DNA of 63,497 bases, filler included, from Reclinomonas americana ATCC 50394 (lineage: Eukaryota): NCBI GenBank assembly GCA_048213135.1. It is 53 parts of 53 records of this genome, joined end to end, with 100 filler letters (N's around TTAATTAATTAA, not from the genome) between each part and the next. Parts side by side here need not be neighbours in the genome. Positions count along the whole stretch, not along the records: positions 1 to 1,111 come from AFZH01026472.1; positions 1,212 to 2,318 come from AFZH01026473.1; positions 2,419 to 3,522 come from AFZH01026474.1; positions 3,623 to 4,728 come from AFZH01026475.1; positions 4,829 to 5,934 come from AFZH01026476.1; positions 6,035 to 7,141 come from AFZH01026477.1; positions 7,242 to 8,346 come from AFZH01026478.1; positions 8,447 to 9,551 come from AFZH01026479.1; 45 more parts are not named here. The stretch is one strand, 5' to 3'. Below the pieces are notes generated by a model. The model saw only the letters and a list, made by a program, of their open reading frames with translations. It was not told where the DNA came from and made no database searches. Positions 91-59,841 of the stretch are shown here, piece after piece. Both the position numbers and the translations under genes were made by a program. The first letter of the stretch is position 1, and the number at the start of each line of letters is the position of its first letter.

Positions 91-560
91 TCGTGTTTGT
101 GCGCAACTTGCCTGGAGAGGCCAATGAGGGAGACTTGCAGGGACTGGCGATGCCGTTTGGCGGAGCTGTGCGCGTGCTGTTGTTGAAGGTTGGTGGGGAG
201 TTGTCTCTGTCGTGTGAGAATGCGTCCCGTGTTCATTGTTTGTCTTGTGCGTGAGAGTAGAAGCAAGGCAAGACGCAGGGCTTTGTGCAGCTGCACTCGC
301 CGGCGCATGCGCAGCAGTTGATCACGTATCATGCCAGCATGCCGGCCATGGTGTAGTTGAGTATTTGCGTGAGCGTGTCTCGTTGAGTGCTTTTGCGTTG
401 CTGACATGCAGCGATGCACAGTGGCCAGCCCGTGTACTTTTCGTACTCTAACCGGCAAGAGATCACCGTCAACCCGCCAGGACACATGGGCGGTGGTGGT
501 GGTGGCGGCGGTGGCGGTGGTGGAATGGGTGGTGGCGGGAGCTCGGGAAGCATGATGCGG
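91..560 (+). CDS. PTB/hnRNP-L-like RRM protein, partial, spliced (exons 91-188, 261-355, 422-560)
   Basis: Spliced translation VFVRNLPGEANEGDLQGLAMPFGGAVRVLLLK-KQGKTQGFVQL...YHASMPAMVYGQPVYFSYSNRQEI resembles PTB RRM1; Gly-rich linker follows; GT-AG boundaries. Confidence 0.8.
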
Positions 561-879
561 GTGAGTAACTTGGAGAGTGGAAGAGGAGAAAGAGAGCTGC
601 AGCGAAGAGTGAGGGGTGGAAAGAGACTGAAAGAGGAAGACATAGAAGGCGGATCAGGGGCGAACCCATTTCTCTCTCCTCGCCACTCTCGTCCATTCCT
701 TCCTCCTTTCTCCTTTCTCCGCTCTTTGTGCCCTCTCCCTTTCTCCTTCCTCTCCCTCTCATCTCTCCTCCTTACCCACCTCTTCCCTCCACTTTCTTCT
801 GCCCTCTCCAAGCGTCAGCATTTCCCTTCTCCTTTATCTTTTCTCCTGTTCCTATTTTCATTTCTCGCCCTCTCCCTCC

Positions 880-1111
880 TCTCCTCTCCTCTCCTCCCCC
901 TACTCCTCCTCCCCTTCCTTCTCGCCTTTTTCTCCGTTTCCCTTCCTCCTTCGTTCCTCTTCTCTCCTCTCCTCTCTCCTCTCCTCTCCTCTCTCCTCTC
1001 CTCTCTCCTCTCTCCTCTCCTCTCCTCTCCTCTCCTCTCCTCTCCTCTCCTCTCCTCTCCTCTCTCTCCTCTCTCCTCTCCTCTCCTCTCTCCTCTCCTC
1101 TCCCTCTCCTC
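880..1111. repeat. Polypyrimidine (CTCCT/CT) microsatellite in an intron
   Basis: Direct inspection. Confidence 0.9.
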
Positions 1112-1211
1112 NNNNNNNNNNNNNNNNNNNNNNNNNNNNNNNNNNNNNNNNNNNNTTAATTAATTAANNNNNNNNNNNNNNNNNNNNNNNNNNNNNNNNN
1201 NNNNNNNNNNN

Positions 1212-2318
1212 TCCCGCGCCGGCACCTCTCACGCTGACCAACGGCATTCGCGCTCAAGTGATTGGCATCGACGGCATTAGCATTGCGCAGGTTCAGGCGT
1301 TTGCCGTCTTCGCCGACGCCGGCTGCGCCGTGTCGCCGGTCGCCCCCAACGTCAACCCGCCGGTGCTGTACGACAACGGCACTCTGACGTTCAGTCCGCA
1401 GTCACCGCTGCACCTGACGCCGGGATTCAAGTACCAGCTGTGCCAGCGTGTGCCTGGCGCTTCCGTGTTCCGCCCACTGGTGGCTCTCGGCATTGCCTCC
1501 ACGGAGACGGCCGTCATCCCGATCAACCCGTCGCGTGCTAATACGGGACAGGTGCTGTCGCCGGTGCTGGTCCGTGGTGTGGCCTTTGTCGCCGCCACCG
1601 TACCCGCCTCGTTCACTCTGGAGTACGTCTCGGATCCGACGGCTCCGTGCGCCGGAAACACGGTCAGCTGCTTCTTCTTTTGGTCAATGGCGTGTCTTGC
1701 CCCCTTCAACTCACACTTGTGTCTGTGCAATTGCAGGTGGCCAACACCGAGGTCGCGCAGTCGAGTGTCAACAACAGCGGCACTCAGATGGACCTGGTCA
1801 TCAACCTCAACCTGTTTGGCATCCCACCGCCCACTGGTGTCTACTACGTCTGCGTCAAGTGGCACAGCAACAATCCGTTCAACACGCGTGCTCCGCTGGT
1901 CAAGTTCGAGGTCGACACTGGTCTCGAGGCGCCGCCCATGCCGATCACCATCACCAACGGTGTGGCGGCTCAGGTGGTCGCCATCTCTGGCGCCGCGGTG
2001 GACTCGCTCACGTCGTTTGCGCTGTTCACCGACGAGGGTTGCCGCACTTCGCCCACTGTACCGGACCTGGAGCCGCAGATTCTCTTTGACGGCAGCTTGC
2101 TGACCTTCAGTCCGGCCGCTCCGCTGCAGCTGACGCCGGGCAAACGCTACGAGCTGTGCATGATGGTGCCGAATGGCACCGAGTGGCGCCCGTTCTCCGG
2201 CCTGCAGGCCGCCGCGGTCACCACCATTGACGAGCCGATCGTGCCGGCGTTTGCGCAGACCAACACACACCACGCCGGCCCGGTGGTGGTGCACGGTGCC
2301 GGTTTTGCGATCATCACC
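1212..2318 (+). CDS. Eukaryotic internally repeated beta-rich protein (probably extracellular), partial; intron 1663-1736
   Basis: Two homologous modules (TLTNGIRAQV...FAVFADAGC...LTFSPQSPLHLTPGFKYQLC and TITNGVAAQV...FALFTDEGC...LTFSPAAPLQLTPGKRYELC); the intron GTCAGC...TTGCAG joins two ORFs. Confidence 0.75.
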
Positions 2319-57500: not shown

Positions 57501-57624
57501 GTGCGCTTCACTCCCAACATCTCCNNNNNNNNNNNNNNNNNNNNNNNNNNNNNNNNNNNNNNNNNNNNTTAATTAATTAANNNNNNNNNNNNNNNNNNNN
57601 NNNNNNNNNNNNNNNNNNNNNNNN

Positions 57625-58643
57625 GGAGATCGGAGCCGGCGACGAGCGTGATCGAGAACACAACGAGGCGCGACCCTCACGACGACTGCTGTTCGCTGAG
57701 TCTCCGATTCGCGCTGCGCTGAACGGTCGGCCGCCGGCCAAGGTGGCTCTGCAAGGTTCGCGGTTGTTACCGCATTCGCCAGAGGAGCCGGCGTCAAGTG
57801 AGTTGTCTCCCAACATGTTTTTTATATTGCTTTCGAACGACGGCAACTTGCTGTTGTGGTTGCTGAAGTCCTTCATGTTTCTTGCAGCCGTGCGTTCGGC
57901 ATCACGACTCACTGTTCAGTGGGCGGGAGGCATCACCGTCGGTGGCGTGGTGGAGTTTGTGCCCGTCGGCGGGCAACCGAGAATGCTGTTGGTCGAGGCC
58001 ATTTTTGACGACGTTGCTTCGCAGCAGCAGCACGCGAAGCGAGAGGCCTGGGTGGTGGGCAAGGTGGGCCAAGTGTCCAGCAGTCCGCTGTTTGACGGCA
58101 GTCGCTGCACGCTGCGTGTGGTGCGGTTCAGTCCGGAAGAGCCGTCGATACGAGTGCCATTGTTGCAAATTCTCCGCGCGGTGCACGTCTCTCACCGCTG
58201 CAACGAGGCACCCAGTGCATGCTGCTACCGCGAGGGTGGCGCCGCACCACTGCGTGTGGAGGGCAAGACGATTGGGGCGTAGTCCTCGACTGCCGGCCTC
58301 AGAGTAACATGTCGTCTGACATCAACGACTTTTGTTACGGCCAGTACAGGCCACCATGATCGGCGCAGCCGCAGTGTACGCAGTAAATGCATCACCACCG
58401 CCTGCGCTCGTCCACGTACTTGTGGCCACACACTCCTCCTCGGGCTCCGCAGCGAGACAAGTCGACATTGTGCGTGTGGGTCGACTTTCTTCCGCCAGTG
58501 CACCACTGAGTGCGCGTGAGCGCCTGTGTGGCAGTGGTGCTACTGTGCATGGCAGACGCACACCAGCGCGTCGTGGTGCGCGACAACTCGGTGCGAGAGT
58601 CGAGTGGGTGTTCCTCAACCAACCGTGGCGCTTCGACGCTTGA
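57625..58643 (+). CDS. Eukaryotic beta-rich hypothetical protein, spliced fragment; boundaries uncertain
   Basis: Val-rich ORFs 57743-58282 and 58332-58643; GTGAGT donor near 57798. Confidence 0.4.
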
Positions 58644-58818
58644 TGTTCAGCACAAAGCCAAAGTTGCACAACCAGCAAAGCACCAAAGCAAAGCACACAC
58701 AAACACCCCTGTTCAATTNNNNNNNNNNNNNNNNNNNNNNNNNNNNNNNNNNNNNNNNNNNNTTAATTAATTAANNNNNNNNNNNNNNNNNNNNNNNNNN
58801 NNNNNNNNNNNNNNNNNN

Positions 58819-59841
58819 TTTAGCAGGTCAAAGAACGGAAGTGGCACGAGACTGACCGTCAGGGTGTACTCAGTCGAAGACGATGCTGAACGTGGCACAA
58901 ATGCCGCAGATCGTGTTGACTGCAACGGCAATGACAAAGTCGTGCTGGTGGTCGTATCCTGCACCACTGCTCCTGTTGAGTCTACCCAGCGGTCGAACGC
59001 AAGGGAAGCATCGATTAGCCGCTTCGCTGACACCGACATCTGCTGGTACCGTATCTGCAACGTAAATGCAGTGGGCACCGCACCGCTTACTGGTGCAGCA
59101 TTCACCGCCAGCACATCAATCAGCGACGCAGTGAGTCCACTAAATGCGTCGTCACCCTGTGAGGCCACAGCAGCAGCCAGAGGTCTCGCGGTCAGCGAGA
59201 ACAGAACAGTCCCATCCGCCGCCTCAAACCAACGAGGTGTGTCACTCGCTTCGAAGGGACTCTCTTCGAACACACACGTGTAGTTCAGATTGCAGGCGTC
59301 GGCAACCGGCGATGCAAACAGCGTAAAACTTGTCACCGGCGATGTCTTGGCGGGAGCTATCAAAGTACACCCAGGATCCTCAAGCACCTGATATATCGTG
59401 ACAAAGGAGTCGAACCCACGGCACTTGGAAAAGAACGGGAAGAACGGGCCGCCGGCTACATCTCGCGATGCCCAGTAATCCTCAACCGCGCGCTCGACAG
59501 GATCGGCAACAAGTTGCGTCGACGAACTCGGCATAAACCTGCAAAATACATGCATAAAAGAGAAAGAGAGCGGGAATAAAGTGTCAGATAAGTCAATCAG
59601 TTGACTGACAGCGATCAACTATCGTAACTGCTCGTATGCAAGTTGATCAGTGTCAACAGGGTTCAGCGGAGGCACAAGCGTGGCATCGTTGGTAAACACC
59701 GCATGCCACGTGTCTGCCAAGCCATAAGTCCCGCGGATTGGTTTGCTGACAGTCACTGACATTGTGTTGTTGAAAGCCAAGCCGGCGAACTTGATGTATG
59801 CACCGTGGATCACTTCCACAATGACATTGAATTTGATGTCT
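58819..59841 (-). CDS. Second allele/copy of the fragment at 51657-52679; intron 59628-59539
   Basis: Near-identical with the same end points; mostly synonymous differences. Confidence 0.55.

Follow-up and report, generated by a model that had tools for sequence, protein, structure and literature searches.

The window analysed here is a 63,497-base stretch of the assembly GCA_048213135.1 (Reclinomonas americana ATCC 50394). It raises the question of whether a eukaryotic genome can use two classes of 5′ splice site (5′ss), one of them being the ordinary donor displaced by a single base, and how such a second class would be read by the U1 small nuclear RNA (snRNA). The initial annotation had listed about 18 independent introns, spliced by hand, that begin with GTTGCG, GTTGAG, GTTGTG, or GTTACG, and all 20 of the listed hexamers were found at the given coordinates and on the given strands. 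The results described below support these shifted donors as the beginnings of real GT-AG introns, in which the donor is the ordinary motif of the organism moved by one base. These donors are real and common in the organism, and the pattern of their bases agrees with a shifted U1 register.

Introns with a shifted donor

Three of the 18 shifted introns were proven to the residue (Table 1). In RPL5, the Pfam Ribosomal_L5e match 2-72 finishes at the last residue upstream of the intron at 7515(-), and the match 74-121 begins at the first residue downstream. The codon split by this intron (T + AC) encodes Y, as it does in 113 of the 117 homologues carrying sequence context (120 were fetched), and a one-base move of either border destroys this residue. 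In the class-III aminotransferase, the exons flanking the intron at 13867(+) abut in the PDB chains 3q8n, 3oks, and 6j2v with exactly one split residue between them, and the spliced product aligned with six homologues without a gap. In VPS35L, the exons around the intron at 42570(-) match the human protein through residue 643 on one side of the intron and from 644 onward on the other, which places the junction between the two, and the spliced product was gap-free against eight homologues. Thus, removal of the intron restored a protein that aligns with its homologues across the junction for three shifted introns.

The same three genes also contain donors of other types. The annotated coexistence of both classes within single genes was borne out for RPL5, the aminotransferase, and VPS35L, and for ORC5 at the level of reading frame and alleles. 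A third RPL5 donor combines T at +3 with G at +5, so T at +3 is also present in the ordinary class. Intron 1 of the aminotransferase, with G at +3, C at +5, and G at +6, belongs to neither class; its junction carries a one-residue insertion relative to the six homologues, and no alternative GT is available.

Two further shifted introns were supported by pairs of allelic contigs. In ORC5, the exon upstream of 43532(+) matches ORC5 PDB chains, and the downstream exon matches Pfam ORC5_lid in the phase-1 frame. The two alleles differ at 11.6% of intron positions and at 2.1% of exon positions, with 16 of the 20 exonic substitutions at codon position 3, and the sole nearby rival GT, 16 bases downstream, is missing from the second allele. 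The short ORC5 exon gave no match as a PDB query, and neither did the C-terminal exon as a query in the homologue search. The GTTACG intron at 52466/59628(-) showed the same pattern, with 15.6% divergence in the intron, 2.3% in the exons, and 17 of 23 exonic substitutions at codon position 3; a stop lies in its read-through frame.

The introns at 356, 49714, 49931, and 56058 have moderate support from positive codon scores together with a branch-like motif. The protein around 356 may be RRM/PTB-like; a PDB search with the two short flanking exons and the Pfam scan returned no match. Four public runs were found to share words with the window, each with a share of 0.05-0.08; they comprise soil and plant metagenomes and one organism run, and none is listed as RNA. 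Mapping of these runs on 49270-50215 gave no match in two of them, one presumed to be RNA, and in the other two nothing but fragments of 21-37 nt that fall in low-complexity stretches. The candidates at 19663, 24729, 26273, 35725, 54319, 55383, and 57393 are plausible on open reading frame (ORF) and signal structure, with weak or negative codon scores, and the remaining two (9415 and 39779) leave their contigs or lie near a contig end. Of the annotated set of about 18, then, three are proven, two allele-supported, and four moderately supported, while seven are plausible on signals and two run off their contigs.

The shifted-class introns are 58-90 nt long and carry a CTSAY branch-like motif shortly 5′ of a YAG acceptor. 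All 20 donors start with GT, and all 16 introns with an assignable acceptor end with AG. Fourteen of these 16 have a [CT]T[CG]A[CT] motif at 8-45 nt upstream of the acceptor, the other two having CTGAC just beyond that range. Seven more GTTG[CA]G motifs, absent from the initial annotation, were observed 42-110 nt upstream of a branch+YAG module, at 37390(-), 29190(-), 63065(-), 35027(-), 27052(-), 26692(+), and 57136(+), and may be shifted donors as well.

Misplaced junctions, or a T inserted after GT during assembly, could in principle have produced such a class. Most sites were indeed placed by eye, chance ORFs are common in GC-rich DNA, and seven sites have no support beyond signals. We nevertheless consider an artefact extremely improbable. 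Three junctions were fixed to the residue by homologues, which largely refutes it for the proven sites; the same donors occur on both allelic contigs; the exonic reading frame continues unbroken through hundreds of codons; and both the class-specific base at -1 and the enrichment upstream of 3′ modules, the latter obtained independently of the annotated list, speak against it.

Anatomy and frequency of the two donor classes

The position-specific comparison included the 18 shifted donors, with alleles counted once, and 11 ordinary donors, of which four were validated by homology and seven were placed by frame, alleles, or signals. The "over 20" ordinary donors of the initial annotation could not be rebuilt. 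Shifted donors have T at +3 (18/18), G at +4 (17/18), C at +5 (15/18), G at +6 (18/18), and T at +7 (13/18), and never G at +5 (0/18). Ordinary donors have G at +5 in 11/11 and T at +6 in 7/11. Positions +4 to +7 of the shifted class therefore mirror +3 to +6 of the ordinary class.

The last exon base separates the classes as well. Among the 18 shifted donors, position -1 is A in 11, T in three, C in three, and G in only one, whereas all 11 ordinary donors have G there (Fisher p=3.5e-7). The frequency of A at -1 also exceeds that at other GTT[AG]NG occurrences (26/116, p=0.0014). The ordinary class can thus be written as G/GTNNGY, mostly G/GTGCGT, and the second class as A/GTTGCGT, where the slash marks the cut. 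Both share the motif G-[G/U]-U-G-C-G-U and are cut before its first GU, giving G/GUGCGU and /GUUGCGU, respectively. At 29/29 sites, the [G/U]UGCGU core is directly preceded by an invariant G.

The 3′ signals (CTSAY and YAG) are alike in both classes, and since the classes also share genes, a separate minor-type spliceosome is unlikely. U12-type introns are marked by the donor [AG]TATCCTT and the branch motif TCCTTAAC, and none of the 18 shifted donors resembles this type. An introner or repeat-derived family was rejected as an origin, as nothing is conserved past about +8 and self-BLAST gave only simple repeats and the three pairs of allelic contigs.

The frequency of the shifted class was estimated from the eight introns validated by homology in RPL5, the aminotransferase, and VPS35L, of which three are shifted and five are not. 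GTTGCG starts three of these eight, against a background of 0.84% (47/5,586 GT-hexamers on 41 non-redundant eukaryotic contigs; p=3e-5). An alternative ratio is four shifted among the 11 introns of the four genes carrying both classes. The annotated share of roughly 40% is supported only by these two ratios, on a very small sample from a mixed assembly.

An enrichment test was then based on the hexamers upstream of a branch-like motif followed by the first YAG, with the annotated list left unused. GTTGCG was the most enriched GT-hexamer, with 14 of 47 occurrences within 40-110 nt upstream of a branch+YAG module (expected 10.2%, p=1.6e-4). In the 40-130 nt window, the values were 15/47 for GTTGCG (expected 12.7%, p=5e-4) and 27/116 for GTTGNG (expected 12.7%, p=1.2e-3), and none of the 10 decoy hexamer classes was enriched. 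Ordinary donors are beyond the reach of this test because GTGTGT-type repeats swamp them. A looser definition of the 3′ module was discarded, as it flagged 31% of positions and gave no signal, and so was ORF openness as the sole criterion, which does not discriminate in GC-rich DNA.

An unbiased class ratio was also sought with a gene finder based on codon usage (Viterbi/expectation-maximization) and lacking any donor model. In its scan of 128 donor classes, GTT.CG ranked top with a gain of 131 (90th percentile, 70), and GTTGCG was top or joint top at the first iteration (3/30, 4/24, 3/17).

Reading of the shifted donor

5′ss recognized in a +1-shifted U1 register were reportedly described by Roca and Krainer in 2009 as rare in humans. 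According to passages of two papers, all 5′ss/U1 pairs move by one position in this register (PMC4856993, PMC9311317). With a probability of about 0.55, we propose that the shifted class uses this register, at roughly a third or more of introns rather than as a rare exception. U1 would bind both classes alike, its C9 pairing with the invariant G; this G ends the exon in the ordinary class and opens the intron in the shifted one. U1 positions 7 to 3 would pair with UGCGU, and the shifted +2 U would face C8. Later spliceosome components, which require GU at the cleavage site, would then place the cut of the second class one base upstream. Every U1 or U6 step of this scheme is one that we infer.

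By their statistics, the shifted donors have the hallmarks of such a register: they lack G at +5, the organism's donor consensus returns when the reading starts one base later, +1 G substitutes for -1 G, and -1 favours A, the partner of U10. The replacement of -1 G by the intron's own +1 G, with -1 turning to A, fits the +1-shifted register specifically. The bearing of -1 is clearest when the alternative is considered that U1 stays in its normal register at +1/+2 and bulges out one donor U (+2 or +3), so that GUUGCGU is parsed as GU-(U)-GCGU. Such bulge +2/+3 sites were reportedly treated by Roca et al. in 2012. An original set of 68 such sites was predicted in humans, according to a passage of PMC4856993. 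A bulge would leave C9 free for a -1 G as in ordinary donors, yet this G is almost never present in shifted donors, and we therefore rank the bulge below the shifted register and regard it as distinctly unlikely.

The extra-T donors might also be read chiefly by U6 with an altered ACAGAGA box, by U5/PRP8, or by a protein, with the U1 register playing a minor part. In all known spliceosomes, it is U6 and PRP8 that determine where the cut is made, and some eukaryotes have lost U1 entirely. The G found upstream of the core at every site is nevertheless what U1 C9 pairing predicts, and a chiefly non-U1 reading seems very unlikely to us.

A dedicated variant U1 is harder to set apart. Such an RNA, for instance with A for C at position 8 or fully complementary to GUUGCGU, would read the second class, while a standard-type U1 would read G/GUGCGU. 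The near-invariant +4 G, +5 C, and +6 G suggest strong and specific pairing, and G-C at +4/+5 is ill-suited to the standard U1 5′ end ACUUAC, which pairs best with A-A at the shifted +4/+5. Expressed variant U1 genes are known in humans, as stated in passages of PMC3561869 and PMC10870369. The 5′ss data predict the same pairs under a variant U1 as under the shifted register except at +2 and cannot separate the two models; we consider a dedicated variant U1 unlikely. No snRNA gene was detected in the window at gathering or E<=1 thresholds.

Several points weigh against the shifted register as set out above. The introns are known from DNA sequence alone, and only three of the 18 shifted sites are proven, while seven combine signals with weak codon scores. 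G-C at +4/+5 may point to a non-standard U1 or other reader of these positions, and the data would be accounted for just as well by a U1 whose 5′ end differs or by an additional U1 species carrying A opposite the +2 U. Ordinary donors show A at -2 in only 2/11, so the A at -1 of the shifted class is not simply the ordinary -2 preference moved by one. The gene finder proved too noisy as a ratio estimator, giving nine introns on reversed sequence vs 16-17 on real sequence, and a single-organism origin of all eukaryotic contigs is assumed.

The wider proposal is that a deep-branching soil eukaryote made the +1-shifted U1 register standard for a third or more of its introns genome-wide, either by a single U1 accepting both G and U opposite position 8 or by a second, dedicated U1; we give this slightly less than even odds. 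If true, U1 would bind one base away from its usual distance to the cut phosphate at a large share of introns in a natural genome, where U1 register and cleavage site would thus be uncoupled as a matter of routine. The old question of what component sets the cut once U1 has departed would become directly testable, and the snRNAs should carry matching changes; the GCG core points to a possible co-evolution of snRNA and donor signal. About a third of the introns here and in relatives would be annotated wrongly by gene finders and splice-aware aligners in which G at +5 is scored, which is also relevant to eukaryotic genes recovered from metagenomes.

Contig make-up and known systems

The window is not a single eukaryotic locus carrying alleles. 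It is a chain of 53 separate contigs of 1,093-1,111 bp each, ordered by length and joined by N44-TTAATTAATTAA-N44 spacers, the first at 1112-1211 and the others following every ~1200 bases, so that reading across any spacer is meaningless. A Pfam scan covering 270 of the 388 open frames of at least 80 residues revealed two kinds of contigs, clearly bacterial and intron-rich eukaryotic. Bacterial families (LptF/LptG permease, amino-acid permease, TetR, an MmyB-like regulator with a glyoxalase, OmpA, TadE, and a response regulator) were found on seven of nine bacterial-looking contigs. The other two, 4829-5934 and 22890-23990, had no Pfam match and were classed by composition and long open frames. 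All nine were left out of the intron statistics.

The eukaryotic contigs have a G+C content of about 55-60% and carry genes for RPL5, ORC5, a PPR protein, the class-III aminotransferase, a Rubicon-homology protein, and VPS35L. The closest named protein to the RPL5 exon is from the jakobid Seculamonas (80% identical), and that to the VPS35L exon is from the malawimonad Gefionella (57%). The eukaryote therefore lacks a close relative among sequenced organisms. A scan of the genome-contig collection for further DNA of this eukaryote gave no match. Relatives of VPS35L in the metagenome collection comprised five loci (L001-L005) on contigs of 2.9-26.8 kb, which are only 46-48% identical and belong to other eukaryotes.

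Self-BLAST revealed three contig pairs with 96.5-97.4% identity, of which one pair lies in opposite orientation; they represent either alleles of the eukaryote or strains closely related to each other. In the pair 1213-2317 / 33601-32503, the same intron begins with GTCAGC on one contig, whereas its counterpart begins with GTAAGC. Contig 10855-11958, with a G+C content of only 43% and a weak CytochromB561_N match, may come from an organism other than that of the remaining eukaryotic contigs. Simple repeats of GA/CT or GGGA type stand at the ends of many eukaryotic contigs (e.g., 7127-7141, 31186-31200, 39697-39711, 45683-45697, and 50349-50362) and probably explain why the assembly breaks at those points.

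Table 1. Introns, candidate donors, and contig groups in the window (positions along the whole stretch)
Feature	Coordinates	Strand	Donor	Length (nt)	Phase	Class and support
RPL5 intron 2	7446..7515	-	GTTGCGTT	70	1	Shifted, proven
Aminotransferase intron 3	13867..13952	+	GTTGCGAA	86	1	Shifted, proven
VPS35L intron	42513..42570	-	GTTGCGTT	58	0	Shifted, proven
ORC5 intron	43532..43601	+	GTTGCGTG	70	1	Shifted, strong support
ORC5 intron, allelic copy	50706..50778	+	GTTGCGTG	73		Contig 96.5% identical to 43289-44385
GTTACG intron	52377..52466	-	GTTACGAT	90	2	Shifted, supported
GTTACG intron, allelic copy	59539..59628	-				Contig pair 97.4% identical
Intron	356..421	+	GTTGAGTA	66	2	Moderate; positive codon scores on both sides, CTGAC branch-like motif
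Intron	49649..49714	-	GTTGCGTT	66		Moderate; gene finder picked another acceptor (120 nt)
Intron	49871..49931	-	GTTGCGTT	61		Moderate
PPR gene intron	56058..56139	+	GTTGCGTG	82		Moderate; PPR repeats in upstream exon, read-through stop 18 nt past donor
PPR gene candidate intron	55383..55460	+	GTTGTGTT	78		Gene finder favoured donor at 55259
Candidate intron	19595..19663	-	GTTGCGAT	69		Signals only; codon score about 1
Candidate intron	24729..24811	+	GTTGCGTT	83		Signals only
Candidate intron	26273..26334	+	GTTGCGTG	62		Signals only
Candidate intron	35646..35725	-	GTTGCGTT	80		Signals only
Candidate intron	54244..54319	-	GTTGCGCT	76		Signals only; low-complexity contig
Candidate intron	57393..57464	+	GTTGCGTC	72		Signals only
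GTTGCG motif	9415..9420	+				Candidate; intron, if real, leaves contig
GTTGAG motif	39774..39779	-				Candidate; 83 nt from contig end, CT repeat next
RPL5 intron 1	7728..7826	-	GTGCGTTT (GTGCGT)	99		Ordinary, validated; gap-free at junction vs 7 homologues
Third RPL5 donor	7267-7285	-	GTTTGTGT			T at +3 and +4, G at +5; intron leaves contig
Aminotransferase intron 1	13448..13511	+	GTGACGGG (GTGACG)	64		Neither class
Aminotransferase intron 2	13634..13712	+	GTGCGTCC (GTGCGT)	79		Ordinary, validated; no gap across junction
VPS35L intron	42790..42853	-	GTTCGTCT (GTTCGT)	64		Ordinary, G at +5; query gap-free at junction vs 8 homologues
VPS35L intron	43001..43059	-	GTGCGTTA (GTGCGT)	59		Ordinary; gap-free vs 8 homologues
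ORC5 second intron	43737..43804	+	GTATGCAC	68		Ordinary; spliced frame stop-free, exonic substitutions mostly at codon position 3
Bacterial-looking contigs	2419-5934, 16875-17977, 20486-21587, 22890-23990, 33702-34800, 36100-37198, 40895-41989					G+C 65-70%
Near-identical contig pair	1213-2317 vs 33601-32503					
Near-identical contig pair	43290-44384 vs 50464-51555					
Near-identical contig pair	51657-52749 vs 58819-59911					

A literature search at title and abstract level found no published genome with a shifted donor as a major class. Among the matches listed for shifted base-pairing or register together with splice site, titles and abstracts dealt with human, yeast, or worm splicing, viruses, and unrelated topics, and searching by the motif string returned only primers and microRNAs/small RNAs.

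The human shifted-register sites are like the donors described here in that a GU donor without G at +5 regains the consensus one base downstream, +1 G stands in for -1 G opposite U1 C9, and the cut stays at GU. They are reportedly rare exceptions, however, whereas the shifted class, with its predicted U1 pairing, accounts for three of the eight validated introns here. Their core is also A-rich, as in the example oligonucleotide ACA/GUCAAGUAUA given in a passage of PMC4856993, in contrast to the GCG core of the present donors. Bulge +2/+3 sites share the surplus of one nucleotide right after GU, but a bulge predicts that -1 G is kept, and this base was found at only 1/18 shifted donors.

Entamoeba donors (GUUUGU) have T at +3 as the norm, and GTTTGT and GTTCGT donors also occur in the organism studied here; Entamoeba keeps G at +5, however, whereas the shifted donors carry C there, followed by G at +6. 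U12-type introns likewise form a second, sharply conserved donor class beside ordinary introns in the same genes, but the donor found here is not RTATCCTT, and its CTSAY and YAG signals are the same as those of the ordinary class. In appendicularian tunicates, passages of a 2026 paper report genome-wide non-canonical splicing and raise a shifted U1 register as a mere possibility (PMC13326754). There, too, a non-standard donor type became the rule in a lineage, but, as far as those passages go, the tunicates abandoned the GT/AG rule, whereas the eukaryote described here keeps GT-AG, the shift being confined to the register of the flanking motif.

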